A stretch of 64,000 nt of DNA from an uncultured Candidatus Rokubacteria bacterium (GCA_963707305.1 CAVPPZ010000004.1:298590-362589), one strand, 5' to 3'. Positions 1 through 45,492 are shown, counted from the stretch's first letter. Numbers and translations: made by a program. The notes: a model not told the origin generated them from the letters alone.

Positions 1-417
1 CGGAGGCCTTTCATGGCATCGGTGACCATCAGGTCGTCGAGCAGTGCCTGCTCGTGGCGGAGCGGCTCGGCGCCAGCGCCGAGCACGAGGCGATCGTGCG
101 GCTCCGCGTCCTCACCCAGGAGGCGCTCGACGTGCGACCGTCGCCTCGCATCGAGCCATGAGTCCCGTCTCGGGCCGCGAGCCACTGGGGGTGACCCTGG
201 CGCTCGCGCCCCTCGGCCGGCTCGCGGTGGCCACGACGTGCGCGGCGCTCGGGCTCCACCCCGATGCGCTCGTTCCGGGAGCGGCGCACATCGTCGCGCG
301 CGCGTGGACCACCACGGTTGCGGCGTGGCGACGCCTTCACCTATCATGGCCGCCCACTCGGTCACGGACCGCGCGCCTGGCCGATGGGGGACCCGTCGGC
401 AGGAGGGTGCCGAAGTC

Positions 418-3082
418 ATGCTGAGACGCGTCGCTCGTCGCCCGCTCGCAGACGTCCTCGTGATCGACGACCCGCTCCAGATGGCCGCGCTCAACGACCA
501 CCCGAACGTGAGCCGGCACGTCCTCGACGAGGGTGGGTGGCTCAACCGGCTGGTCCACCGCTGGATCTACCGCACCTTCACCGTGGGCGGCGCCCCGCTC
601 GGCGTCTTCACCGCGCACGACGACGACGCGCGGATCACGCGCCAGGAGGCGCTCGAGCGTCGTCTCAAGCAGACGGAGCCCGACGCCGACGGCGTCGCCG
701 CCCTCGCGCGCTACGTGGCCGGGGCCGAGCTCCCCGCCGACGTGGGCGTCGTGGCGCAGCAGGTGATCGGCCGGCTGTTCTTCGCCGACTACGTCGCCAC
801 GCCGGAGTCGTATCGCGCGGCCCGGCGTCTGCTGAACCCGATCTGGATCGTCTGGGCCGCGCTCACCGGTCACCGGCCACCCGGCGCCGACATCGTGTGG
901 GCCGCGGCGCGCGACGACCTCGACTGCGTCCACGCCACCGGGATCGCGGTCGGCGGAGTCGTCGACACGCTCGAGCGCATGCGCAGGCTGGCCGCCGACC
1001 GCCATCGCGGCCGGGCTCAGCAGGCCGAGTCGGCGCTGCTCCAGGCCCTCGTCGCGCCGTCGTTCCTGTTCCGCTCGTGCACGAAGGACACGATCGTCCC
1101 CTTCCTCGACCAGCCGCTGCACCGCGGGACGTTGATCGTGTTCCGCCTCCGCGCCATGTACGAGGCGGCGCGGACCACCGATCTCGCGTTCTCGCGCGGC
1201 GCCTGGAGCCGCTGTCCCGCGCACGAAGCGGTCCCGAGGCTCCTCCTGGCCGTGTGGCGCGAGGCGAAGCACGTGCCGACCCATGGGCCGCGACGCCGGT
1301 CGTGGCTGTCGCGCCTGTTCACCGCGACGTTCGAGCTGATCAACCGGGCGGTGCCCTGGCACCGGTTGCCGACGCGGCTCGGCGTGCTGAACCTGCTCGC
1401 GCTCCGCACGGTCCTCCGCGAGAAGAACCTGTACAGCACGGAGCCGCCGGCCTCGCGCGGGCGCTGCCCCATCACCGGCTGGCTGCCCCGCTACCAGCAC
1501 GAGCGGACGCCCGACGGCACCCACAACGATCTCGCGGAGCCGCACATGGGCGCGGCCCACACGCGCTTCGGTCGCGCCGTTCCGCTGGATCGGACGATCC
1601 CCGACGCGCCGCCCGCGCTGCTGACGCCGAACCCGCGCCGGATCAGCAACGAGCTCCTCGCGCGCCGGCGCGGGCGGATGATCGAGGCGCAGGCCTTGAA
1701 CCTGCTCGCGGCGGCGTGGGTCCAGTTCGAGATCCACGACTGGTTCAGTCACGGGCGCCCGGACACCCGCGACCCGTACGAGCTGCCGCTCGACGCGGAC
1801 GATCCCTGGCCGGACCCGTCCATGCTGATCGGCCGGACGCCCGCGGAGCCGCCGGACCATCCGCCGCTGCCGTCGCCCACGTATCGCAACCACGTGACCC
1901 ACTGGTGGGACGCGTCGCAGCTCTACGGGAGCACCCTCGAGACGCAGCGGCGCGTCCGTGCGGGCCGGGACGGCAAGCTCGCCGTCGTCGACGGACTGCT
2001 GCCCTGCGACCTCGTCACCCGCATCCCGGTGACCGGGTTCAACGACAACTGGTGGGTCGGCCTCGCGTTGTTCCACCTGCTGTTCACGCTCGAGCACAAC
2101 GCCATCTGCGACCGGCTGCGCGCCGAGCGGCCGGGCTGGGACGACGAGCCGCTGTTCCAGACCGCGCGGCTGATCAACGCGGCGCTCATCGCGAAGATCC
2201 ACACGCTCGAGTGGACGCCGGCCATGCTCGGGCATCCGGCCCTCCAGATCGGCATGAAAGGCAACTGGTGGGGCCTCGCCGGCGAGCGGATCCACCGGCT
2301 CCTCGGACGCATCAGCGCCAGCGAGGTGGTGAGCGGCATCCCCGGCTCGCTCGACCGACCACCACGCGGCGCCGTACGCGATGCCCGAGGAGTTCGTGTC
2401 CGTCTACCGCATGCACCCGCTGATCCCGGACCGCGTGGTGTGTCGCTCCGCGGCCACGGGCCGCGTGCAGGACCACTACACCCTCATGGACGTGACCGGC
2501 GCCGGCGCGCAGGCGGTGCTGGAGGCGACGCCGGCGACGGATCTCTTCTACTCGTTCGGCGTGTCGCACCCCGGGCAGGTCACGCTCGGCAACTATCCGG
2601 ACACGCTCCGCACGTTCCGGCGGGCCGACGACGGCGCGCTCCTCGATGTCGCGGCGATCGACGTGCTGCGCGATCGCGAGCGCGGCGTGCCGCGCTACAA
2701 CGAGTTCCGCCGGCTCTTCCACCTGCCGCGGATCGACTCGTTCGAGATGCTCAACCCGGCGTGGGCCGCGAAGCTGCGCGACGTGTACGAGAACGACATC
2801 GACCGCGTGGACCTGATGGTCGGGATGTTCGCCGAGACGCCGCCGCGGGGCTTCGCGTTCAGCGACACGGCGTTCCGCATCCTGATCCTGATGGCCTCGC
2901 GCCGCCTCAAGAGCGACCGCTTCTTCACGAGCGACTACACGGCCGATGTCTACACGCAGACGGGGCTCGACTGGATCGAGCACAACGATCTGCGCTCGGT
3001 GCTGACGCGGCACTACCCGGGCCTGCGACCGGCGCTCGTGGGCATCGAGAACGCGTTCGCGCCGTGGAACGCGATCGAGTGA
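418..3082 (+). CDS. Animal-type haem peroxidase / fatty-acid alpha-dioxygenase (PIOX/cyclooxygenase-like) with ~390-aa N-terminal extension of unknown function; single frameshift near 2340-2357
   Basis: ATG at 418 preceded by GGAGGG. Translation contains RFGRAV, LNLLAAAWVQFEIHDWFSHG (distal His helix), then in the +1 frame HHAAPYAMPEEFVSVYRMHPLIPD (proximal His region) and RGVPRYNEFRR. Frame switches from 1 to 2 between 2333 and 2357 in the run cgaccgaccaccacgcg. Frame 2 has TGA at 2330-2332. Confidence 0.75.
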
Positions 3083-3089
3083 CGATCCC

Positions 3090-4541
3090 GTGCGGGTCAG
3101 GAACTTCGGCCGGAACGTGGACTTCCAGGCGGAGGGCCTGACCCCGCGCGACGAGCTCGAGGTGCTCGACCTGCTCCGCGCGCACGCGGGCCGAACGATC
3201 CGCGCGGTCGGCGCGGCCCACTCCTGGAGCGACCTCGTGCGCAGCGACGGCCTCGTGATCGACCTGCGCCGGCTCGATCGGATCGCGGTGCATCGCGGCG
3301 GTCCGGGGGTCGCGACCGTGACCGCGGGCGCGGGGTGCCGGATCGGAGCGATCCTGAAGGCGCTGGGCGCGCACGGGCTCACGCTCCCGACCGTCGGCGC
3401 CATCACGAAGCAGACCATCGCGGGCGCCGTCTCGACGGGCACCCACGGCTCCGGCGCCAGCAGTCTCTCGCACTACGTGCGGGCCGTGCGGCTCGCGACG
3501 TACGATCCGCAGACCCGCGAGCCGACGGTGATCGACCTCGACGTGACGGGCCCCGAGCCGTCTCCGTTGCGCGCGGCCCGCTGCGGGCTCGGCTGCCTCG
3601 GCGTGATCGTGTCCGTCACCCTCGTGTGCGTCCCGGCGTACGAGGTGGAGGAGGTCCTCGACCTGCCGCGCTCGGTGCTCGAGGTGCTCGCCCTCTCCGC
3701 GATGTTTCCGCTCCAGCAGTTCGTGATGATCCCGTACGCCTGGCGGCCGTATGCCTTCCATCGCCGCCGCGCGGATCCCCGACGACGCCGCAGCCTCGCG
3801 TCCTGGCTCACCACGCGCGCCTACCGCGCGCACAAGCTCCTGACGGTCGACGTCCTCATGCACCTGCTGGTGAAGGGCCTCGCCCGCTTCGGCTCGGCAC
3901 GCCTCATCCGCGGGTTCTACCGGAAGGCGCTCCCGGCGACGGCCCTGCGCGGCCTGGCCGTGACCGATACGAGCGAGCGCACGCTCACGCTCCGCCACGA
4001 CCTCTTTCGTCACGTCGAGATGGAAGTGTTCGTCCCGGCCGCGGCGCTCGTCGAGGCGATCCACCTCGTGCAGGTCCTCACCGACGCGTTCGCCGGCGTG
4101 CGCCGCCTCTCCACGTCCGTCGAGGCGTCGCTGGCCGCCCGCGCCCCCGGCGCGCTGGCGGAGCTGCAGCGCCACGCGGGACGCTACACGCATCACTACG
4201 TGATCCCGTGCCGGCGCGTGCATCCCGACGACACCCTGATCTCGATGACCGCCGACGGCCGCGAGGCATGGGCGCTCGGGTTCTTCAGCTACGTGGGGCT
4301 CACGCCGGCGTTCAGCGCGTACTGTCGCGCGGTGGGACTGGCCCTCACCGCGCTCCACGGCGCGAGGCTGCACTGGGGCAAGTACTTCCCGCTGACGCAC
4401 GCGGAGGCCGTCGCGGACGCCTACCCCGGCCTCGCGCGCTTCCGCGCGCACTGCGCCGGCTACGACCCGGCAGGCACCTTCCGCGGCGCCGAGGTCGAGG
4501 CCACGCTCGCGCTCACAGGAGATCCGCGAAGTACGGGTTGA
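3090..4541 (+). CDS. FAD-linked oxidoreductase, FAD_binding_4 / ALO (gulonolactone-oxidase/vanillyl-alcohol-oxidase superfamily)
   Basis: GTG start 8 nt after the peroxidase stop. N-terminal RNFGRNV...GAAHSWSDL, GGVSTGTHGSG-like FAD site (ISTGTHGSGASS), C-terminal YPGLARFRA. Confidence 0.7.
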   Translation: MRVRNFGRNVDFQAEGLTPRDELEVLDLLRAHAGRTIRAVGAAHSWSDLVRSDGLVIDLRRLDRIAVHRGGPGVATVTAGAGCRIGAILKALGAHGLTLPTVGAITKQTIAGAVSTGTHGSGASSLSHYVRAVRLATYDPQTREPTVIDLDVTGPEPSPLRAARCGLGCLGVIVSVTLVCVPAYEVEEVLDLPRSVLEVLALSAMFPLQQFVMIPYAWRPYAFHRRRADPRRRRSLASWLTTRAYRAHKLLTVDVLMHLLVKGLARFGSARLIRGFYRKALPATALRGLAVTDTSERTLTLRHDLFRHVEMEVFVPAAALVEAIHLVQVLTDAFAGVRRLSTSVEASLAARAPGALAELQRHAGRYTHHYVIPCRRVHPDDTLISMTADGREAWALGFFSYVGLTPAFSAYCRAVGLALTALHGARLHWGKYFPLTHAEAVADAYPGLARFRAHCAGYDPAGTFRGAEVEATLALTGDPRSTG

Positions 4542-5904
4542 GCAACCGGCCGCGCGGATCCTCCTGCTTGGTGAGCGCGCGGAGGGCGTGCCAGTCCTGG
4601 CCGAGCGAGCGATGGACGATCGCGCGCGTGATGTGCTTGGTCTGGTTCAGGAGCGGGCGCGCGCCGTGGCGGGCGGCGAAGTCGTTGAACTCCCGGTGCA
4701 TCAGCTCCCAGTAGTCGGCGTCGGCCGGCTCGCGCGGCGTCCAGTCCACCATGTCGAGCGTGAAGATGTCCTCCTGCTTCGAGAACGACAGCGGTGAGCG
4801 CGTGTCACGGCGGATGAAGTAGACCTCGGTCGGCAGCGCGGGCCGGAAGCCCGTGCGCCGGAAGAACGCTTCGCAGAACTCGAAGTACGCGGGGAGCACC
4901 GTCGGCCACGAGCTGGCGGGGAACGCCCAGAACGTGAACTCGAAGTGGCTCGCCACGTCCCGCTTGAAATCGAGCATCGCGTCCACCCGGTACGCCACGA
5001 AGCTCCGGATCAGCTTCGCGAACAGGAACTTCAGGATGTTGTCGATGACGGAGACCCAGGTGTTGACGCCGCGGGTCGCCGACCGCACCAGGCGCGGGCC
5101 GAGCCACGTGCTGATCGAGCGCGGGAGCAGGTTGATCGGACGCGCGCCGCTCTTCCAGGACTTGTCGCGAATCCACGCCTTGAGGCGGTCGACCGGGCCG
5201 ATCGGTGTCGTGTCCGGGACGATCGTCCGGCGCTCCACGAGCAGGCGCTTGTGGTACGGCAGCAAGAAACCGAGGAAGCCGTCGGCGCCGCTGAGCACCC
5301 GCGAGGCGAGCGGCGGCACGGGCGTGAGCGTGAGCCACTCGTAGTGGTAGCGGATCTTCTGCAGCGACCGCGTGCGGAAGGTGACCTCGTAGATGATGCC
5401 GAGCAGCCCGTAGCTCGAGCGGATCTGCCGCATCCGCTCCGGATCGCGCGCCTCGGTCACCGTCACCACGCCCCCGTCCGGGCTGATCATCTTGACGCCC
5501 ACGACGGTGGAGCTGATCTGGCCGAGTCCCTTCTCCCCGAGCGACGAGTCCTTCGTGCCGCAACACGCGACCGAGCCCGCCGTGGCGTTGCCGATCTCCG
5601 GCACGACCTCGATCTGCAGGCCGTGCGGCTTGAGCCAGTCGCGCAGGTCGATCATGCGGACACCGGCGCCGACGGTCACCGTCCAGTCGACCGGATCGTG
5701 CTTGGCGATGAAGTGCTTCATCTGCACGGCGGTGCCCGAGGTCGTGAAGCACTCGTTGAGCGAGTGCAGCTCCCCGATCGCGCGCACGGGCGACGGATAG
5801 AGATCCGTGTCGCCGACGATGGCGGCGAGCTCCTCCACGGTGGTCGGCGCCACGAGCTCGGCCGGCGTGCAGCGCGCGGAGTCGTTCCAGTTCCACAGGA
5901 TCAT
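4513..5904 (-). CDS. FAD-linked oxidase (FAD_binding_4, ALO/GULO-like), paralogous in fold to 3090-4541
   Basis: Minus-strand translation MILWNWNDSARC...VGAGVRMIDL...TAGSVACCGTKDSS...LLNPYFADLL. ATG at 5902-5904 overlaps the stop of the upstream regulator gene (ATGA at 5901-5904). Converges with the 3090-4541 gene with a 29-bp 3' overlap. Confidence 0.75.
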   Translation of the reverse strand: MILWNWNDSARCTPAELVAPTTVEELAAIVGDTDLYPSPVRAIGELHSLNECFTTSGTAVQMKHFIAKHDPVDWTVTVGAGVRMIDLRDWLKPHGLQIEVVPEIGNATAGSVACCGTKDSSLGEKGLGQISSTVVGVKMISPDGGVVTVTEARDPERMRQIRSSYGLLGIIYEVTFRTRSLQKIRYHYEWLTLTPVPPLASRVLSGADGFLGFLLPYHKRLLVERRTIVPDTTPIGPVDRLKAWIRDKSWKSGARPINLLPRSISTWLGPRLVRSATRGVNTWVSVIDNILKFLFAKLIRSFVAYRVDAMLDFKRDVASHFEFTFWAFPASSWPTVLPAYFEFCEAFFRRTGFRPALPTEVYFIRRDTRSPLSFSKQEDIFTLDMVDWTPREPADADYWELMHREFNDFAARHGARPLLNQTKHITRAIVHRSLGQDWHALRALTKQEDPRGRLLNPYFADLL

Positions 5905-8900
5905 GGCTGGCCCTCCAGCAGCTTCCGAGCAATGAGGAGGTCGGGCAGCCCGAGGCCAGGCCGGAACCGGGCCACGATCGGGCGCAGGGTCTCGAGGCCG
6001 CGCGGAGCGATGCGCGCGAGCGCCGCGGCGCCGCGGAGCGCGAAGAGCCACGCGCCTTGCGCGGTGGCCGCCTCGACCGCGTGCGCGAACACCGCCGTGG
6101 CCGCCTCCGTCTCGCCCCGCCGCATCAGGATCTCGCCGTGCACGCGGTGGAGCTCGCTGACGAACGCCTGTTCGCCGGTCTCCTCGGCCTGCTGCTGCGC
6201 CTCGGCGACGACCGACGCGGCCTCGTCCAGCTGACCCACGGTGGCCAGCGCTTCCGCCAGGTGCGCGCGATGCGCGAGCCCGATTCGCTGTCCGAGCGAG
6301 CGAAAGAGCTCGGCTCCAAGGCGCATCATGGGGACGCCTTCGGCCGGCTCGTGGCTCGCCACGCGCGCCCAGCCGGCCAGGTTCATCCCGAACGCGGAGA
6401 ACAGCGGGAACGACTGCTCCCGCGCGATCGCGAGCAGCTCCTCGCCCAGCGCCCGCACGGTGGCGGCGTCGCGGCACAGCTCGTGGACCTGGGCGGCGAA
6501 GTAGATGGCACTCCCGATCGTGGGCGGGTGTTGCGTGGCGCGCGCCTGCCACACCGCGCGCTCCGCGGTGATGCACGCGCGATCGACATCGCCCAGGATC
6601 GCGAGGGTCCACGCCAGGAACGCCGACGCGCCGACGCCGAGGTCCTGTCCGTATCGGAGCGCCTGCGATCGGCTCCGCACGGGATCGTAGGTGCTCAGCG
6701 CCTGCTCGAAGTGCGCGCTCGCCTCGTTGAACCGTCCCAGGTAGAAGGCGTTGGCGCCGGCGGCGAGGTGCGCGCCGATGCTCACGTCGGGATCGCTCTC
6801 GTGCTCCATGGTCCGCAGGAGCTGGCCGGCGATCTCCTGCGCCGCGCGGAGATCCGCGCGCGACGCGTAGAAGCGCCAGAGCCCCCAGCGGACGAAGAAG
6901 AACTCGATGGACTCGCCGACGCGATCGGCGAGCGCCTCGCACAGCTCGCGCGCCCGGTCCATCGTCGCGCCGACTTCGGGCGCCCCCCACCCGCGTGTCA
7001 TCGCGAGGGCGGCGCCGAGCAGCATGTGGAGCCGCAGCTCCAGCGGCACCCGTTCGGACGCCTCCGCAAGGGCGCTCACGAGCTCCAGCCCCTTGGTGAG
7101 ATGGGCGACGGCCTCGATGTGGGCCGAGCGCTGGAACGCCCGCTGACCCGCCCGATGCCAGTAGGTGACGGCCTCGGCGATGCGGCCGCCGGACGTGTAG
7201 TGATGGGCGAGCAGCTCCGGCTGCCGCTCGCGGACGTCGGGCATGAGCCGCTCGATCGCCTGCGCCACCCGCACGTGCAGTCCGCGCTGCACATCGTCGA
7301 GGAGGCTGCGATACGCGACCTCCTGGGTCAGCGCGTGCTTGAACGTGTACGCCCGCGTGGGCCCGCTCACGGTCTCGTGGAGGAACTCGGCGGCTTGCAG
7401 GTGGCTCAAAGAGCGTCCCAGCGTCGCGTCCGGAAGCTCGGCGACGTGAGCGAGGAGCGTGAGGTCGACGTCCTTGCCGATGACGGAGGCCATCTGCAGG
7501 ACGGCGCGATCGTCGTCGGGCAGGCGGTCGAGCCGGGCGGTGAGGACGCCCTGGATCGTGTCGGGCACCCGCACCTCGGAGCGCAGGTCGGGATGCTCGG
7601 CCACGGCGCGCGCGAGCTCCTCGAGGAAGAACGGCACGCCGTCGGCGTGGCCCAGGATGGTCTCGGCGAGCTGCGCGGGGAGCTGCTCCTGCGGCACGAC
7701 GTCGTGCACCACGCGGAGACTGTCCGCGCGCGACAGGTGATCGAGGACCATCTGGGTCGCGTACGAGCGCCCGAGCCACGGCGGCTGATAGCCCGGACGA
7801 TAGGTGAGGAGCAAGAGCAGGGGACCGCCGCTGAGCGCCTCCGCGAACGACGCGAGGACCTCTTCCGACGTGCGATCGATCCAGTGCAGGTCTTCGACGG
7901 CGACGACGAGCGTCCGCCGCCGGCTCCCGGCCACGGCGATCTGCCGCAAGATGTCGAGCGTGCGCGCCCGCAGGGCCTCCGGGCTCTGGCCGGCCAGCTC
8001 CTCGGTGCCTTCCTTCACGCCGACCAGATGGAGCAGGTACGGCACCGATCCCTTCGCCTCGAGGCCGAGGATGCTCAGCCCGGTCGTGAGCTTGTCGGCG
8101 ATCACGTCGGGCGCATCGAGCTCGCCGAGGCGGAAGTTGTGACGGATCAGCGCGAGGAGCGGCGCGTACGGCACGGTGCTCCCGTACGACACGCAGCGTC
8201 CCTCGACCCACGTGACGCGGCCGCGTCCCAGGCTCTGCTTGAACTCGTGGAGCAGCCGCGACTTCCCGACCCCCGGCTCGCCGACGATCCCCACGACCTG
8301 GCCGCGGCCGGCTTCGACGTGCGCGAGACGATCGTGCAGCAGCGCGAGGTCCCGTTCGCGACCGACGAAGCCGCTCAGCACGCGTCCGCCCACCTCGAAT
8401 CCCGTGCGCTCGTGCCCGACCACGCGATAGACCTGGGGCGGCGGCGACACCGTGCCGCGCGGCGGATCGAGCGCGAAGCGACGCTCGATGAGCGGCGCCG
8501 CCGCGCTGTCCAGGACCACGGCGTCGGCCGGCGCCGCGGCGAGGAGACGATCGAGGATCGCCCACACCTCGCCGCGCTCCATCGGATCCATGCCGGTGAC
8601 GTCGCCACCGTGCGCGATCAGTCGCGAGCCCGCATGGATCGCGATCCGCGCCTGGAGCCCCTGGACCGCCGCGGCGCTCGCACGCTGCGCGGCCTTGAGC
8701 ATCGCGAGCGCGGCGTGCGTGGCGCGGCTGGGCGCGTCCTCCATCGGCTCGAACCCGAAGACGGCCACGAGGCCGAGCGGCGTCACCTCCTCGACGCGCG
8801 CGCTGAAGCTCTTCACCTTCGCGATGAGCTCCTCGAGCAGCGGCGCGAGCTGGAAGGCCGCCGTGTCCGCGGGCGCGTCGAGCGCGACGCGCACCACGGT

Positions 8901-10064
8901 GATGAGCCGGCGCTCCCAGCGGAGCGGTCCCGCGGGCGTCGCGGCGACCACCGCCGTGCCGCTCGGCGCCGCGAGACGCCGGGGCGCCGGACGAGGCTCC
9001 GTCACGCGCTTCGCCGGGCGCATCGCCGACGGCCGCAGTCCCAGCTTGTCGAGGTGGGCGCGCAGCGTGTTGCGCGAGATCCCGAGCAGCGTCGCCGTCC
9101 GGGAGATGTTGCCGCCCGTGTGCTCCAGCACCTCCTGGATGTGCGTGCGCACGACCTCGTCCAGCGTGCCCGGCACGGCGGGCGCCGGCGTTGATGGCGC
9201 CGGCGGCGCGACGGAGACGTCGAGATCGAGCATGGCGGCGTCGATGCGCGGCGAATCGGACAGGAGCGCGACGCGTTCCATCACGTTGCTCAGCTCGCGC
9301 ACGTTGCCGGGCCAGTGATAGGCCTCCAGCTTCGCGAGCGCATCGGCCGTCAGCTCGCGGACGGGCAGCCCGTGGTCCGTGCAGGCGTGCGCCAGGTAGT
9401 GCCTGGCGAGCAGCGGAATATCCCCGGGGCGGTCCCGGAGCGGCGGCAGCGAGAGCGTGACGACGGCGAGCCGGTGATAGAGGTCCTCCCGGAACGTTCG
9501 CGCACGAACATTGGCCACCAGGTCCGCGTTGGTGGCGCTGATGATCCACGCGTCCGCGGGCTCGTTGTCGGTGCTGCCGAGCCGCCGGACCGCGCGCTCC
9601 TCGATGACCTTGAGGAGCTTCGCCTGCACCGCTTCCGGCAGGAGCCCGACTTCATCCAGGAAGATCGTTCCGCGATGCGCCGCCTGGAAGAGACCGGGCT
9701 TCGCGCGCCGGGCGTCGGTGAATGCGCCCCGCTCGAAGCCGAAGAGCTCGGCCTCGATGAGGCTCTCGGGAATGGCGGCGCAGTTGACGTCGACGAACCG
9801 GCCGCTCGCGCGCGGGCCCGAACGGTGCAGGAGCGATGCCACCAGTCCCTTGCCGCTGCCGGTTTCACCCTGGATGAGCACCGCCGGCGGGCGGCCGGCA
9901 CTCTGCGCGAGCGTGGTGAGGCGCGTGATGGTGGCGAGCAGCGCCAGCATCGCCGGGCTCTGACCGATCAGGCCCGTCGGCTCGCCCTTCAAGATCACCA
10001 GCGCCTCCTGCCGGCGGTAACGACCGCCGCACACGCGATCATAGAAAAGCGCCTGGGGCGACAC
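5901..10064 (-). CDS. 1387-aa multidomain regulator: sigma-54 interaction AAA+ domain (N-terminal), Fis-type HTH, degenerate class-III cyclase-homology domain, STAND/AAA_16 NTPase, TPR repeats
   Basis: GTG start at 10064. Motifs: GETGSGKG (Walker A), GTIFLDEVG (Walker B), ELFGFERGAFTDA (GAFTGA variant), NVRELSNVMER, HTGGNISRTATLLGISRNTL (HTH_8). Then ITVVRVALDAPAD...LVAVFGF (cyclase-homology-like). Then GIVGEPGVGKSRL...LVVAVEDLHWID (P-loop NTPase) followed by a long alpha-helical TPR-like tail. No N-terminal sensor domain precedes the AAA+ core. Confidence 0.8.
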   Translation of the reverse strand: MSPQALFYDRVCGGRYRRQEALVILKGEPTGLIGQSPAMLALLATITRLTTLAQSAGRPPAVLIQGETGSGKGLVASLLHRSGPRASGRFVDVNCAAIPESLIEAELFGFERGAFTDARRAKPGLFQAAHRGTIFLDEVGLLPEAVQAKLLKVIEERAVRRLGSTDNEPADAWIISATNADLVANVRARTFREDLYHRLAVVTLSLPPLRDRPGDIPLLARHYLAHACTDHGLPVRELTADALAKLEAYHWPGNVRELSNVMERVALLSDSPRIDAAMLDLDVSVAPPAPSTPAPAVPGTLDEVVRTHIQEVLEHTGGNISRTATLLGISRNTLRAHLDKLGLRPSAMRPAKRVTEPRPAPRRLAAPSGTAVVAATPAGPLRWERRLITVVRVALDAPADTAAFQLAPLLEELIAKVKSFSARVEEVTPLGLVAVFGFEPMEDAPSRATHAALAMLKAAQRASAAAVQGLQARIAIHAGSRLIAHGGDVTGMDPMERGEVWAILDRLLAAAPADAVVLDSAAAPLIERRFALDPPRGTVSPPPQVYRVVGHERTGFEVGGRVLSGFVGRERDLALLHDRLAHVEAGRGQVVGIVGEPGVGKSRLLHEFKQSLGRGRVTWVEGRCVSYGSTVPYAPLLALIRHNFRLGELDAPDVIADKLTTGLSILGLEAKGSVPYLLHLVGVKEGTEELAGQSPEALRARTLDILRQIAVAGSRRRTLVVAVEDLHWIDRTSEEVLASFAEALSGGPLLLLLTYRPGYQPPWLGRSYATQMVLDHLSRADSLRVVHDVVPQEQLPAQLAETILGHADGVPFFLEELARAVAEHPDLRSEVRVPDTIQGVLTARLDRLPDDDRAVLQMASVIGKDVDLTLLAHVAELPDATLGRSLSHLQAAEFLHETVSGPTRAYTFKHALTQEVAYRSLLDDVQRGLHVRVAQAIERLMPDVRERQPELLAHHYTSGGRIAEAVTYWHRAGQRAFQRSAHIEAVAHLTKGLELVSALAEASERVPLELRLHMLLGAALAMTRGWGAPEVGATMDRARELCEALADRVGESIEFFFVRWGLWRFYASRADLRAAQEIAGQLLRTMEHESDPDVSIGAHLAAGANAFYLGRFNEASAHFEQALSTYDPVRSRSQALRYGQDLGVGASAFLAWTLAILGDVDRACITAERAVWQARATQHPPTIGSAIYFAAQVHELCRDAATVRALGEELLAIAREQSFPLFSAFGMNLAGWARVASHEPAEGVPMMRLGAELFRSLGQRIGLAHRAHLAEALATVGQLDEAASVVAEAQQQAEETGEQAFVSELHRVHGEILMRRGETEAATAVFAHAVEAATAQGAWLFALRGAAALARIAPRGLETLRPIVARFRPGLGLPDLLIARKLLEGQP

Positions 10065-10098
10065 AAGCGACGGCCGCGCGCGATGTTAGACTCGCCGC

Positions 10099-11289
10099 GT
10101 GGCGCTGCCGCTCGAAGGGATCGTCGTCGTGGATCTCACCCAGAACGTCGCGGGCCCGTTCTGCTCGCAGATCCTCGGCGACATGGGCGCCGAGGTCATC
10201 AAGGTGGAGCGGCCGGGACGCGGCGACGACGCGCGCGCGTGGGCGCCGCCGTGGTGGGGCGACGAGAGCTCTGCGTTCATGGCGTTCAACCGCAACAAGA
10301 AGAGCCTGGCGCTCGACCTCAAGCACGAGGCGGGCCTGGCGGTCCTGCGACGGCTGGTCGCACGCGCGGACGTCTTCATCCAGAGCCTCCGCGCCGGGGT
10401 CATCGGCGAGCTTGGCCTGGATTTCGCGGGAGCCTCGGCGCTGAACCCGCGCCTCGTCTACTGCTCCATCACCGCGTTCGGCACCCGCGGCCCCCTCGCC
10501 AGCCGGCCGGGCTACGATCCGCTCATGCAGGCCTACGCCGGCCTGATGTCGATCAACGGGCATCCGGGCGCCGAGCCGGCGCGCGTCGGGACGTCGATCG
10601 TCGACATGGGCACCGGGATGTGGGCGGCGCTCGGCATCGTGGCGGCGCTGCGGCAGCGCGACGCGACCGGCCGCGCCGTCGAGGTGACGACCGCGCTCTT
10701 CGAGACCGCGCTGATGTGGGTCTCGTATCAGGCCATGGGCTACTTCGCGTCGGGCGAGGTGCCGGAGCCGCAAGGGTCGGGCACCTTGATGATCGCGCCG
10801 TACCAGGCGTTCCGTGTCGCCGACGGGTACGTGATGATCGCGGCCGGCTCGGACGCGCTCTTCGCGCGACTCGCGGGAGCGCTCGGCGTCCCCGAGCTCG
10901 CGCGCGACCCGCGATTCATCGACAATCCGACGCGCGTCGCCAATCGCGCGGTCCTCGTCGAGACCATCACGGCGCTGACGGCGGATCGCAAGGCCGCCGA
11001 TCTCCTCGAGGCGCTGCGCGTGGCCGGCGTGCCGAGCGCGCCGATCTTCCGCATGGACCAGGTGATGGCGGAGCCGCAGACGCGCGAGAGCGGCATGGTG
11101 ATCGCGGCGCCGCACCCGCGCCTGCCGGACTACCGCTCGATCGGCCTGCCGCTCCAGTGGGACGGCGCACGCCCCGGCGTGCGGCGCGTGCCGCCGAAGC
11201 TCGGCGAGCACGACGCCGACGTCCTCACGTGGCTCGGCTACACGCTCGACGACATCCGCAGCCTGCGGCAGCAGAAGGTGCTCGGGTGA
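10099..11289 (+). CDS. CoA-transferase family III (CaiB/BaiF/Frc-like)
   Basis: GTG start. LPLEGIVVVDLTQNVAGPFC, GAEVIKVERPGRGDD, CSITAFGTRGP, EHDADVL. Divergent from the regulator with only ~34 bp between starts. Confidence 0.85.
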   Translation: MALPLEGIVVVDLTQNVAGPFCSQILGDMGAEVIKVERPGRGDDARAWAPPWWGDESSAFMAFNRNKKSLALDLKHEAGLAVLRRLVARADVFIQSLRAGVIGELGLDFAGASALNPRLVYCSITAFGTRGPLASRPGYDPLMQAYAGLMSINGHPGAEPARVGTSIVDMGTGMWAALGIVAALRQRDATGRAVEVTTALFETALMWVSYQAMGYFASGEVPEPQGSGTLMIAPYQAFRVADGYVMIAAGSDALFARLAGALGVPELARDPRFIDNPTRVANRAVLVETITALTADRKAADLLEALRVAGVPSAPIFRMDQVMAEPQTRESGMVIAAPHPRLPDYRSIGLPLQWDGARPGVRRVPPKLGEHDADVLTWLGYTLDDIRSLRQQKVLG

Positions 11290-18489: not shown

Positions 18490-19839
18490 TCACGGCCGGG
18501 CCGCGCTCCCGCCGGCCGTGCGGGCGAGCGCGTCCAGCTCGGCGCGCAGCGCGCGGCGCCGGGCGTGGAACCGGCGGTGCAGGTCCGGGCGGAAGAGGAA
18601 CGCGAGGAACCCGACCACCTGGCCGCGGAATCGTCGCAGGCGCTCCTGCCAGCCGAGCGCGAAGAACCCGCTCGGGACGAGCGCGACGAGGAAGCCCGCG
18701 ACCGCCCACGCGCCCGCGATCCGGCCGAGCGCCCACGCTTCCATCGCCCAGCACACGGGGAACGCGACGATGGCGACGGCGAGCTTGACGGTCGCCACCA
18801 TGTCGTCGTCCGGCGTGGCGACGCGCACGACGAGCCGGGGCAGCTGATACGGCAGCCCATGCACGAGCACGCCCCACAGCGCGAGCGGCGCCCCGAGCAG
18901 CAGCGAGCCTCCCTCTCGCAGCGTATAGCGGGCCACCCGGGCGGCGGAGTAGCGCGCCGGGATCCGCTCGTCGAAGCCGGCCAGCTCCCGGTCCTTCTCG
19001 TAGCGCTCGAGCTCCTGACGGAACCGCATGACGCGCTCGGGCGCATCACGTCGCAGGGTCCTGTACGCCACCATCACGCCGCGCATCCAGGCGGCCTGCT
19101 CGGCGGCGTCATCGTCGGCGCGCGCGTGCCACAACCGGGCGATCGCGGTGACGAGCTGGAGGGTGCGGCGATCCTCGGCCTCGACCACCAGCGCGCGGAG
19201 CGCGGACGCGATCCCGTCGGTCAATCCGCGCACGGTCCCTTCCGGGTCGATGGCGTAGGCGCCGACGAGATCGCGCGTCGGCACCGGCTCGCCCACGAGC
19301 ACCAGGGCGCGGCCCGTGCGGAACGTGCCGGGCTCCTCGTACACGAGCCCGACCGGGAGGAGCGTCACGCCGAGCGCCCCGGCCTTCAGGTGCTCCGCGC
19401 CGAGGACGAGGCGCGCGGCGCCCGTGCGGAGCGGCATGAGCACGGGCTCCGGCTGACTCACGCCCTCGGGGAAGAGCAGGATGGCCTCGCCCGCGGCGAG
19501 CAGCTCGCTGACGCGATCGAACGCGGCCGCATTGCGATCCGGCCCCCCCTCGCTCTCGTGACGCCGGTGCACCGGGATGGCGCCGATGAGATGAAGGAGC
19601 GTGCCGAGCACGGGAATGCGGAACAGGGGGGCCTTGGCGATCGGCCGCAGCGCCCGCGGCAACCGCGCCAGGAGCAGCAGGGGATCGACGAGCGCGTTCT
19701 GGTGGTTGGCGACGACGACGAGCGGACCGCGGACGGGGACGCGCTCGAGGCCCGCGACGTCCACACGGCGATAGAAGGTCGCGACCAACAGCCGCGCCGT
19801 GACCGCGATCGCGCGCGCAATCATGGCCCTGGTGTACAA
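18490..19839 (-). CDS. Lysophospholipid (1-acyl-sn-glycerol-3-phosphate) acyltransferase, PlsC-like, with C-terminal transmembrane extension
   Basis: VVANHQNALVDP (HX4D acyltransferase motif), LLFPEG, hydrophobic C-terminal segments. Confidence 0.7.
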   Translation of the reverse strand: MYTRAMIARAIAVTARLLVATFYRRVDVAGLERVPVRGPLVVVANHQNALVDPLLLLARLPRALRPIAKAPLFRIPVLGTLLHLIGAIPVHRRHESEGGPDRNAAAFDRVSELLAAGEAILLFPEGVSQPEPVLMPLRTGAARLVLGAEHLKAGALGVTLLPVGLVYEEPGTFRTGRALVLVGEPVPTRDLVGAYAIDPEGTVRGLTDGIASALRALVVEAEDRRTLQLVTAIARLWHARADDDAAEQAAWMRGVMVAYRTLRRDAPERVMRFRQELERYEKDRELAGFDERIPARYSAARVARYTLREGGSLLLGAPLALWGVLVHGLPYQLPRLVVRVATPDDDMVATVKLAVAIVAFPVCWAMEAWALGRIAGAWAVAGFLVALVPSGFFALGWQERLRRFRGQVVGFLAFLFRPDLHRRFHARRRALRAELDALARTAGGSAARP

Positions 19840-43829: not shown

Positions 43830-44957
43830 GCTCGGAGGGGGGATCGCGGCTTCGCCCCCCTTCAGACGGGGCGCATGAAGACGTAGCCGATGCCCGTGCG
43901 CTCCAGCCAGACACGGGACAGCTCGTCCACGGCGATAGCGGCGACGGACCTCGGCCGGCGTCGGGGCCGCCGGGTCGTTCACCAGGACCTCGTCGCCATC
44001 CAGGCCCGTGATCACGATGAGGTGGCCCGTGGTTTCGGGGATCGCCGCGTGGCTCAGCTCGCCCGCCTTGTACCGCACCGACGCCACGATCGGCAGGCCG
44101 CGTGTGAGACACCACGCGGCCGCCTCCCAGTCGGGGAAACGCAACAGATAGCCGAGGACGCCGTACGTCGCCGCCGCGCGGATCGCGGCCGGCCACACCC
44201 CGTACCGATCCGTCGCCGCGTGGAAGACCGCCTCGGCGAGCACGGGCGTGGGCACCGCGCATCCGAGGTGCTCGAGCGCCATCGCGACGCTGGTCGGCGA
44301 ACAGATCCGGAGTCGGATGTCCTCGGCCTCGGTCATCTGCGTCCGCGCCGGGACCTCGAGGCTGACCGCGGGACTGGTCGTCGTCAGGTCCCCGAGCGCA
44401 CCGTCCCAGGCGGACAAGGTCACCAGCCACGGCACGTCGACGATCGCCTCCGCCTCCGGCCCCGCGACGCGGATGTGCAGACGCACCGCGTCGACCGGCG
44501 GCGTCGCGCACACTTCGTCGATATCGGCGCTGAAGCCGTCGATGCCCGCGGGCATCGGGGCGAACGCATGCGCGCCCAGCGGCGCCGTGCCGATCCACGG
44601 GGACCACGTGCCCGCGCGTCGCGCGGAGAGCTCGAACCGCACGCTCGGCGCCCGGGGCATCAGCAGCGCCAGCGCCGGGACCAGGTGACGGGCCGGCGTG
44701 CGGGGCGCCCACGGCCCGAACTCCAGCACGAGATCCCGGCCGTCGCGACGCGGCGCCGGCGCGGGCGTGAGCTCGCGGCGCACCGAGGGCGGGATCGCGT
44801 CGGCCACGGCGCGGGCGTCGAGCTGAGAGGTGGCCGCGAAAAGGTCCGTCACGGGCACTGGCCGTCCAAGGTTGGGAACGAAACTACCACGCGCTCGTCG
44901 ACGCACCGCCGAAGTCCCTGGTTCCTGGACGGGCACCTCGCGGCATTTTGCTTGCAC
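43782..44957 (-). CDS. Protein with C-terminal papain-like Peptidase_C39_2 (BtrH_N-type) domain and ~200-aa N-terminal region of unknown function; C-terminus uncertain
   Basis: RICSPTSVAMALEHLGCAV, YGVWPAAIRAAATYGV, GHLIVITGLDGDEVLVNDPAAP. The last ~25 codons translate the GC hairpin and overlap the convergent gene, so the real stop is probably upstream. Confidence 0.55.
   Translation of the reverse strand: MQAKCREVPVQEPGTSAVRRRARGSFVPNLGRPVPVTDLFAATSQLDARAVADAIPPSVRRELTPAPAPRRDGRDLVLEFGPWAPRTPARHLVPALALLMPRAPSVRFELSARRAGTWSPWIGTAPLGAHAFAPMPAGIDGFSADIDEVCATPPVDAVRLHIRVAGPEAEAIVDVPWLVTLSAWDGALGDLTTTSPAVSLEVPARTQMTEAEDIRLRICSPTSVAMALEHLGCAVPTPVLAEAVFHAATDRYGVWPAAIRAAATYGVLGYLLRFPDWEAAAWCLTRGLPIVASVRYKAGELSHAAIPETTGHLIVITGLDGDEVLVNDPAAPTPAEVRRRYRRGRAVPCLAGAHGHRLRLHAPRLKGGEAAIPPPSLEVGEPLLRRRTLAA
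43834..43863. repeat. GC hairpin related to the 56226/58875 element (GGAGGGGGG-atcgcggcttcg-CCCCCCTTC)
   Basis: Read directly. Sits between convergent genes. Confidence 0.4.
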
Positions 44958-44985: not shown

Positions 44986-45174
44986 CCATGACCTTCGGCA
45001 AATGTGTGTGGGACGGTTGCACCCGCCATGCGGAAAAACCGACGACCAGCGCCTGCCGCGCACACCACGTCACGATTCGCGACCACCGGTGCGAGAAGTG
45101 CCAGGGGCCGCTCACGAGCTCGCGCGAGGTCGACGCCCGGCGCTGCCGCCGCTGCGCGGCCAGCCGCGCCGCCT
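44986..45174 (+). CDS. 62-aa Cys-rich zinc-ribbon-like protein
   Basis: Strong RBS GAAAGGAG then ATG. MTFGKCVWDGCTRHAEKPTTSACRAHHVTIRDHRCEKCQGPLTSSREVDARRCRRCAA (CxxxxC...C...H...CxxC...CxxC). Confidence 0.5.
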
Positions 45175-45315
45175 GACCGACGGCCTGTTCCCTCCGCCGC
45201 CGTCTTGCTGCAGCCTCACGACACCGCCGTGTGTCCGGGCTGCATAGCAGCGCCCGTACGCCCGCACGAAACCGCCCGTTCCAGGCCTGGCATTCGCGTT
45301 GCACCTTTGAGGGGC

Positions 45316-45492
45316 ATGCTGCCAGACCCTGAGTTCCACGACGACCTTCCGGAAGGCGCGGTCGACGCCGAGGTCCACCGCTTCACCGTGCAGCGGGGCA
45401 TGGCGGTGGCGCTGGTGATCGAGACGCGCGATTGGTACTCGGGGTTGCTTCAGGCGTCGATGGCGCGGGTGCGCATCGAAGGGCAGAACTGA
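45316..45492 (+). CDS. 59-aa hypothetical protein
   Basis: MLPDPEFHDDLPEGAVDAEVHRFTVQRGMAVALVIETRDWYSGLLQASMARVRIEGQN. Weak RBS. Confidence 0.3.
   Translation: MLPDPEFHDDLPEGAVDAEVHRFTVQRGMAVALVIETRDWYSGLLQASMARVRIEGQN

Follow-up and report, generated by a model that had tools for sequence, protein, structure and literature searches.

The window analysed here, a stretch of 64,000 nucleotides from an uncultured Candidatus Rokubacteria bacterium (GCA_963707305.1 CAVPPZ010000004.1:298590-362589), encodes on its minus strand a large regulator in which a predicted sigma-54 activator is followed by a cyclase-like domain, a STAND NTPase and a TPR-like solenoid. The protein is best read as a STAND protein with a bacterial enhancer-binding protein (EBP) as its effector, and it is probable that this EBP is regulated by the C-terminal STAND switch instead of by an N-terminal sensor. 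EBPs and STAND proteins are among the best-studied ATP-driven signalling machines. The sequence-only reading of this DNA had placed two ATPase modules in one polypeptide and had named no described example; domain scans back both modules, and no published account of an EBP-STAND fusion was found in a literature search outside which lay subscription-only papers such as the 2004 STAND survey of Leipe and colleagues. What appears to be undescribed is a STAND switch that carries an EBP as effector, with a pseudo-cyclase in between; its components and logic are known.

The open reading frame (ORF) occupies 5901..10064 (-) and specifies 1387 aa, GTG 10064 being the most upstream start possible. Residue numbers of all domains follow this 1387-aa ORF and not the 1365-aa form argued for below. 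Its N-terminal part contains the following features.

9453..9968 (-): sigma-54 interaction AAA+ domain, aa 33-204 (Pfam PF00158 Sigma54_activat, E 3.4e-58)
9846-9869 (-): EBP Walker A, GETGSGKG
9711-9728 (-): GAFTDA L1 loop, aa 113-118
9648-9665 (-): EBP Walker B, IFLDEV
9528-9542 (-): EBP sensor I
9468-9494 (-): EBP R-finger region
9207..9437 (-): AAA+ lid domain AAA_lid_14, aa 210-286 (Pfam PF25601, E 4.6e-23)
9291-9314 (-): sensor II motif WPGNVREL, in the lid domain
9045..9149 (-): Fis-type helix-turn-helix (HTH_8), aa 306-340 (Pfam PF02954, E 3.9e-11), aligning with the helix-turn-helix (HTH) of ZraR

The first 345 residues match solved EBPs over the AAA+ core and HTH (ZraR, 1ojl, E 2.9e-63; also NifA, FlrC, NtrC1 and PspF), and in the alignment with ZraR the Walker A, Walker B, sensor I, R-finger region and sensor II motifs are all present. 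Pfam and this alignment thus bear out the earlier proposal of an EBP core at the extreme N-terminus followed by a Fis-type HTH, with Walker A, Walker B and the GAFTDA variant at the positions listed. These residues are predicted to form a complete PspF/ZraR-like activator of AAA+ domain, lid and Fis-type HTH, in which the GAFTDA loop would be the sigma-54 contact and HTH_8 the DNA-binding domain for upstream enhancer sites. GAFTDA is kept in at least 90% of 117 homologs, and the F and T of the loop are conserved together with all the ATPase motifs. The same variant is present in the D. vulgaris regulator DVU2106 and has been listed as one expected to retain transcription activation (PMC4641369). 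A Pro/Ala-rich linker joins the HTH to the pseudo-cyclase.

The position of the start codon bears on how close the AAA+ core lies to the N-terminus.

5901..9998 (-): EBP-STAND regulator coding sequence in its most likely form, 1365 aa plus TGA stop at 5901-5903
10004..10009 (-): Shine-Dalgarno sequence AGGAGG, 5 nt before GTG 9998, as read from the sequence
10038..10066 (-): putative sigma-70-type promoter of the regulator gene, with -35 TTGTGT (10066-10061), a 17-nt spacer and -10 TATGAT (10043-10038), a consensus match only

GTG 10064, from which the protein had first been read, falls within the -35 hexamer of the putative promoter, whose TATGAT block is kept upstream of the ortholog in locus L081. 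A database protein identical to the window protein (P0001) is 1365 aa long, which corresponds to a start at 9998. Because of the AGGAGG 5 nt upstream, the -35 element covering 10064 and the length of P0001, the true start is most likely GTG 9998, about 10 residues ahead of the AAA+ core; this strengthens the description of the core as lying at the extreme N-terminus. An N-terminal sensor domain missed upstream is ruled out: an in-frame TAA at 10088-10086 lies 24 nt upstream of GTG 10064, a divergent CoA-transferase gene starts at 10099, 35 nt upstream of the same codon, and there is therefore no room for one. More than 100 full-length homologs start at the same point as the window protein.

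Beyond the HTH, the raw sequence had suggested about 1000 residues made up of a cyclase-homology domain, a STAND NTPase and TPRs, and the family profile and fold searches agree.

7305..8384 (-): STAND nucleotide-binding oligomerisation module (NOD), with P-loop nucleotide-binding domain, helical domain and winged helix, aa ~561-920 (Pfam AAA_16, AlphaFold, Foldseek)
8259-8282 (-): STAND Walker A, GEPGVGKS
7875-7904 (-): STAND Walker B, VAVEDLHWID
5904..7298 (-): C-terminal TPR-like alpha-solenoid, presumed sensor arm, aa ~923-1387 (all-helical repeats in the AlphaFold model, pLDDT >90)

The Pfam match to AAA_16 spans aa 566-751 (E 2.4e-30), so that domain scans find the STAND NTPase as well as the sigma-54 domain, and the G, K and S of the STAND Walker A and the E, D, W and D of its Walker B are invariant across 47 family sequences. 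Since a PDB sequence search with the C-terminal 827 residues gave zero matches, a fold search was used for this region. The AlphaFold model (pLDDT 92, pTM 0.88) has as its top Foldseek matches the archaeal STAND-TPR protein 6mfv (E 1.3e-13), Apaf-1 (E 2.3e-10), Avs3, MalT (8bob), CED-4 and plant NLRs; the matches to 6mfv and Apaf-1 are of fold, with sequence identity of just 12-18%. The solenoid gives a weak Pfam TPR_2 match at aa 1098-1124, and its model is similar in fold to the TPR domain of LGN and to the TPR part of 6mfv. These models identify the C-terminal module as a genuine STAND NOD with a TPR-like solenoid after it.

Between the two ATPases lies the cyclase-like domain.

8412..8924 (-): pseudo-cyclase with class III cyclase-homology fold, aa ~381-551 (family profile, AlphaFold, Foldseek)
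8907-8921 (-): pseudo-cyclase family motif RWERR
8721-8741 (-): pseudo-cyclase family motif EDAPSRA

The Pfam Guanylate_cyc model scores this segment at 15.9 bits, under the gathering score of 21.9. A profile built from 42 family segments matches the class III cyclases CyaB (3r5g, E 1.1e-6) and CyaC (1wc0, E 5.2e-5), and the AlphaFold model of aa 374-570 (pLDDT 90.5) retrieves guanylyl and adenylyl cyclase catalytic domains (RhoGC, Cya2, CyaB, CyaC) with Foldseek (E 3.7e-11, TM 0.70). The catalytic positions were read by aligning CyaC to 117 family members. In the window protein the first metal Asp is replaced by Ala, the substrate Lys by Glu, the second metal Asp by Leu and the transition-state Asn by Ala. 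The expectation that the domain is non-catalytic therefore stands; the belief that only the second metal Asp had been lost does not, since both metal ligands and other catalytic residues are substituted. The family conserves none of the six catalytic residues: the six residues most often found at the first metal position do not include Asp; Glu occupies the Lys position in 98 of the 117 members; the second metal Asp is retained in only 25 of them; and the Asn and Arg are unconserved. The segment thus reads as a pseudo-cyclase that would not belong to the class III cyclases as an enzyme. Because the catalytic residues are gone while the domain's own motifs (RWERR, SFGGRVEE and FGxEPxEDAPRRA) are conserved, it is predicted to be retained for some non-catalytic role. 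It probably links the NOD to the HTH/AAA+ module as an adaptor that dimerises, or else binds nucleotide without catalysis; in conflict systems inactive cyclase domains are common, and roles of the adaptor or nucleotide-binding type have been proposed for them (PMC7159879).

It is scarcely credible that so long an ORF is an artefact of mis-assembly, read-through fusion or pseudogene formation. High-GC DNA does yield long spurious ORFs, and a neighbouring gene is frameshifted, but the regulator ORF has a third-position GC content (GC3) of 0.91, typical of coding sequence, in a window of 71% GC; the same protein is found at full length in hundreds of independent assemblies, and both modelled halves have pLDDT >=90. 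The homologs refute the artefact reading. Two off-frame ORFs overlapping the regulator, 4513-9549 (-) of 1678 aa and 6057-9194 (+) of 1045 aa, were rejected as genes; their Arg/Ala/Gly-rich products are typical of DNA of 71% GC, and the real part of the former is only its last 463 codons (4513-5904), which encode an FAD oxidase.

The ancestry of the C-terminal cassette is indicated by NCBIfam TIGR03903 (TOMM kinase/cyclase fusion), to whose profile positions 344-1265 residues 432-1350 align with E 8.8e-124. The score of 414.7 lies under the cut-off of 705.75, and the kinase part of the profile is unmatched; the window protein has no kinase domain. The likeness first seen to the module of LuxR/SARP-type regulators does not extend to the class of regulator. 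The closest cassette is that of the TIGR03903-type fusions, and the protein is without a LuxR/SARP DNA-binding domain: a Pfam scan at E <= 0.1 found no GerE/LuxR, Trans_reg_C or BTAD domain, and the sole HTH is HTH_8, between the two ATPases. Because the cassette is homologous to TIGR03903, the comparison suggests that an EBP took the place of a kinase before a pre-existing cyclase-NOD-TPR module. The order of an N-terminal effector, a NOD and a C-terminal repeat sensor is the usual STAND layout, and it is for this reason that the protein is best read as a STAND protein with an EBP effector; the N-terminal position of the EBP core follows from the normal STAND order.

In STAND proteins a signal at the repeat arm permits nucleotide exchange and oligomerisation of the N-terminal effectors, and EBPs must be hexameric to open sigma-54 promoters. 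By analogy, a ligand or partner protein would bind the TPR arm and free the NOD for exchange of ADP for ATP and then for oligomerisation. The oligomer would gather the N-terminal AAA+ modules into a hexameric ring at upstream enhancer sites, and the EBP ATPase could then remodel the sigma-54 closed complex. In a bolder form of this proposal, the protein represents an undescribed class of sigma-54 activator in which an apoptosome-like STAND switch templates the AAA+ ring, with the dead cyclase as adaptor or nucleotide sensor and two mechanistically different ATPases of one polypeptide acting in series, one being a slow switch and the other a remodelling motor; in Rokubacteria such proteins would have multiplied to become the main local one-component sigma-54 regulators, each with a divergent and often nearly leaderless target. 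So extended, the proposal is possible, though rather short of probable.

The sign of control might also be the opposite one. The STAND, TPR and pseudo-cyclase regions could act together as an intramolecular inhibitor that keeps the EBP as an inactive dimer, and a signal would relieve the inhibition with no templating of a ring. Precedents are the receiver domains of NtrC1 and DctD and the action of PspA on PspF; it is well established that truncated EBP cores (PspF 1-275, for example) can assemble and function unaided, and the EBP core here is complete in itself. Dimerisation is obligatory, moreover, for class III cyclase domains, and by keeping that fold the protein could lock a dimer. Inhibition of this kind is rather unlikely, though not negligibly so: characterised STAND proteins work by signal-induced oligomerisation of N-terminal effectors, and the folds found here match Apaf-1, MalT and Avs.

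That the EBP half acts on sigma-54 promoters is indicated by the surroundings of its relatives, for which 83 family loci totalling 1.28 Mb were analysed. Sites of the form TGGCAC-N5-TTGCW number 6 with no mismatch, against 0.3 expected from shuffles, and 52 with at most one mismatch, against 13.8 +/- 4.1. The sequence-only reading had proposed a search for -24/-12 promoters, and at family loci they are found: 29 of the 83 family genes have an opposite-strand site (<=1 mismatch) 84-170 nt from the AAA+ domain start, against about 0.4 predicted by the shuffle rate, and the number rises to 41 of 83 when two mismatches are allowed. This amounts to an enrichment of about 80-fold for near-consensus sigma-54 promoters at a fixed divergent position. 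On the strength of these 29 genes, the family members are probably working sigma-54 activators, and in many of them the divergently transcribed neighbour is the likely target. Divergent targets were identified from promoter-anchored ORFs, and neighbours from called genes with Pfam annotation; a crude six-frame clustering of neighbouring ORFs, swamped by off-frame ORFs at high GC, served as a lead only and was superseded. Behind the sites lie genes for a ROS_MUCR zinc-finger protein, a TauE exporter, an LPG_synthase_TM membrane protein, a class III aminotransferase (Aminotran_3) and an unannotated protein of about 190 aa, putatively secreted, the type of target varying with the paralog group.

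In two paralog groups, repeat blocks (TTTACCAC, TGGTCA) are conserved at 100-140 nt upstream of the -24 element, the distance expected of enhancers. These blocks are candidate enhancer sites, which would also overlap the regulator's own promoter. When 200 nt upstream of the -24 element were examined, the blocks CTTACTGGTCAAG, CTGGTCAG, TTTACCAC and TGACCAC were seen in L017, L040, L048, L054 and L073 and in L014, L038 and L052, between the divergent sigma-54 promoter and the regulator start codon. The ATG of a long ORF stands 12-13 nt past TTGCW, often in a conserved (G)TAGGGGCATG, at L014, L017, L038, L040, L052, L073, L074 and L083, and at 45304-45318 in the window. Such transcripts would have little or no leader, an uncommon arrangement at sigma-54 promoters.

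Several observations weigh against a STAND-gated sigma-54 activator. The first concerns the window copy itself, for which the search for -24/-12 elements failed where it had succeeded for the family: no intergenic sigma-54-type promoter (<=2 mismatches) was found within 13 kb, and a search with the consensus, with a position weight matrix (PWM) from 41 family sites and with up to 3 mismatches gave no intergenic site near the regulator. The best PWM candidate in the window, at 45288, lies 35 kb off and scores 18.2 bits, a score reached by one of ten shuffles. No RpoN box was found in the 64-kb window or in the 1.28 Mb of family loci, an amount of sequence too small to be informative. A pull-down with VfmH, another GAFTDA protein, did not recover sigma-54 (PMC10714721). 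The varied stoichiometries of STAND rings need not fit the EBP hexamer, and the gating step, the sign of control and the ligand are all drawn from the workings of MalT, Apaf-1 and EBPs.

Some of these points would also suit an EBP-like core that is no longer linked to sigma-54, the protein being a sigma-70-dependent activator or repressor like TyrR or the NtrC of R. capsulatus and its AAA+ domain serving for oligomerisation only. Besides the VfmH result and the want of a nearby sigma-54 promoter in the window, its L1 loop deviates from the canonical GAFTGA, and both the regulator and the peroxidase cluster described below have sigma-70-like promoters upstream. Such a change of function is nonetheless improbable in view of the enrichment of divergent near-consensus sigma-54 promoters by family genes, the listing of GAFTDA among variants expected to function (PMC4641369) and the conservation of the loop F and T and of the ATPase motifs.

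A sigma-54-like site at 9841 (-) was rejected as a chance occurrence; it is intragenic, its bases coding for the conserved LVASLLH segment. Two further sigma-54-like promoters share one intergenic region, 44941-44956 (+) (CGGCATTTTGCTTGCA) and 45288-45303 (+) (TGGCATTCGCGTTGCA, the best PWM site). The former is followed by a small ORF for a 62-aa Cys-rich protein (44988-45176), and the latter by one for a protein of 58 aa (45316-45492), with its ATG 12 nt past the promoter 16-mer. The pair suggests that the genome uses sigma-54, with the reservation that one in ten shuffles equalled the best score.

The resemblance of the C-terminal half to Avs3, which is among its fold matches, raises another alternative, that the protein is an anti-phage or conflict STAND (Avs-like NLR) with an incidental EBP-like effector. 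Many family paralogs occur per genome, and conflict systems often contain inactive cyclase domains (PMC7159879). Against a role in defence, PADLOC recognises only the EBP core (RtcR/PspF-type models on aa 31-343) and, marginally, a P-loop (mad8, E 3e-4); the window protein matches none of its STAND defence models, Avs included. A Pfam scan of the protein found no nuclease, protease or other toxic effector domain, and family neighbours are metabolic, membrane or regulatory genes under sigma-54 promoters. A defence function is thus very improbable.

With a STAND-controlled EBP as the preferred reading, comparison with known regulators shows what is new. The N-terminal half resembles PspF/ZraR-type EBPs (PF00158 + PF02954) in its AAA+ core, lid, C-terminal Fis-type HTH, ATPase motifs and L1 loop, and it resembles PspF in having no N-terminal regulatory domain. 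It differs from them in the family loop GAFTDA and in the roughly 1040 residues that continue past the HTH as pseudo-cyclase, STAND NTPase and TPR. PspF is controlled in trans by PspA, as is well known, whereas the presumed regulator of the window protein is fused in cis. LevR-type EBPs, PRD-containing proteins of Firmicutes, show that regulatory domains can lie on the C-terminal side of the AAA+ core; unlike the window protein, LevR has an N-terminal HTH and is controlled by PRD/EIIA/EIIB phosphorylation, without a STAND NTPase, cyclase fold or TPR.

MalT and AfsR (LAL, SARP-STAND) are likewise single-polypeptide transcription factors gated by a STAND NOD and a helical-repeat sensor, and AfsR shares the order of N-terminal transcription module, NOD and TPR. 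Their outputs are DNA binders of the LuxR or SARP type, which work with sigma-70 RNA polymerase and lack an ATPase, whereas the predicted output here is an EBP ATPase acting on sigma-54. The cassette is homologous end to end to cyclase-AAA_16-TPR proteins of the TIGR03903 and Rv0386 types; the former carry an N-terminal Ser/Thr kinase and the latter no N-terminal module, where the window protein has an EBP and HTH. Rv0386 is an active cyclase, unlike the window domain with its lost catalytic residues. PH0952 (6mfv) and Apaf-1, the best structural matches of the C-terminal 827 residues, have other N-terminal effectors and no role in sigma-54 transcription.

If this reading is correct, the fusion would show how ring assembly of a transcriptional AAA+ motor can come under STAND control, and it would add a sixth type of EBP regulation to those by receiver domains, by GAF/PAS/V4R domains, without a regulatory domain (PspF), without a DNA-binding domain, and by PRDs. 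The regulator, the divergent sigma-54 promoter and the upstream repeats would form a defined and portable set. The family also marks a large unexplored area of regulation in Rokubacteria/Methylomirabilota, a phylum that is abundant in soil and groundwater and of which very few members are in culture; at present its database label is just 'sigma 54-interacting transcriptional regulator', the name that some NCBI records of metagenome-assembled genomes (MAGs) give to family members.

The architecture search proposed in the sequence-only reading confirms the fusion, but not as a one-off. A search with the pseudo-cyclase profile gave at least 280 clusters at 50% identity (E <= 1e-30), with the domain at residues ~340-560 in full-length members, and the best 120 clusters at 90% identity are all about 1350 aa long with the same domain set. 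A scan of species-representative genomes, which used the family subset with an invariant EDAPRRA motif and so samples only part of the family, returned 134 relatives, mostly from Methylomirabilota/Rokubacteria. The 80 loci kept from these are overwhelmingly from Methylomirabilota/Rokubacteria MAGs, often with 2-3 per MAG, and a few come from other soil phyla. With few exceptions, complete loci encode both GAFTDA and a pair of Walker A motifs, and in 7 of the 83 loci two family genes lie within 20 kb of each other. The family is large and uncharacterised and belongs mainly to uncultured Rokubacteria of soil and groundwater.

Stand-alone cassettes without the EBP half (L024, L036, L041, L049) were set aside as most likely frameshifted assemblies; L036 and L041 have a separate GAFTDA ORF upstream. 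Family members are also found in MAGs of distant groups, namely Nitrosotalea (an archaeon, L023), Verrucomicrobiia (L020), Solirubrobacterales (an actinobacterial order, L042) and Dehalococcoidia (L044); Actinomycetota have been reported to lack rpoN (PMC12316311). These distant-phylum members could be due to binning contamination or horizontal transfer.

The genes that accompany the window copy lie downstream of it.

4513..5904 (-): FAD_binding_4/ALO-type oxidase, 463 aa (Pfam), its ATG (5904-5902) overlapping the regulator TGA (5903-5901)
418..4541 (+): convergent neighbour cluster (Pfam), conserved with this ortholog group
418-3082 (+): animal-haem-peroxidase gene (An_peroxidase), frameshifted near 2350-2365
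3090-4541 (+): second FAD_binding_4/ALO oxidase gene (Pfam)

Because the oxidase start and the regulator stop overlap in ATGA, the two genes are predicted to be co-transcribed, and this overlapping arrangement is repeated in the orthologs P0002, P0003 and P0004. The peroxidase/oxidase cluster is syntenic in L082, L083, P0002 and P0003; a haem-peroxidase gene, with or without a hydrolase and the second FAD oxidase, is convergent to the regulator pair in the window, L082, L083 and P0002. We infer a functional link between the regulator and the peroxidase cluster. Upstream neighbours vary: at L081 a paralog (43%) and a GYD gene stand between the ortholog, which is 77% identical to the window protein, and the CoA-transferase operon. 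These are the tandem family paralogs of L081 3434-12101, 43% and 77% identical to the window protein, with the small GYD-domain gene between them.

The window peroxidase gene is split by a frameshift near ctcgaccgaccaccac (window 2340-2400 (+)), with positions 2-291 of the Pfam profile in one frame and 306-522 in another. Orthologs are intact at about 890-910 aa, and the split gene is either a real pseudogene or the product of a one-base assembly error. L082 has a TGGCAC-N5-TTGT site about 155 nt upstream of the peroxidase start codon, weak and with the GC of its -12 element broken, and L083 has a weak TGGCTT-N5-TTGC site upstream of the gene; both were weighed as possible targets of this ortholog group, and neither has a counterpart in window positions 1-417. 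A sigma-70-like promoter, TTGC(N2)-17/18-TAT(G/C)AT, lies 55-80 nt upstream of the peroxidase start in all three (window 338-355, L082 ~18795-18812, L083 ~18760-18775), and a TATGAT -10 box is common to the promoters of the regulator and the peroxidase.

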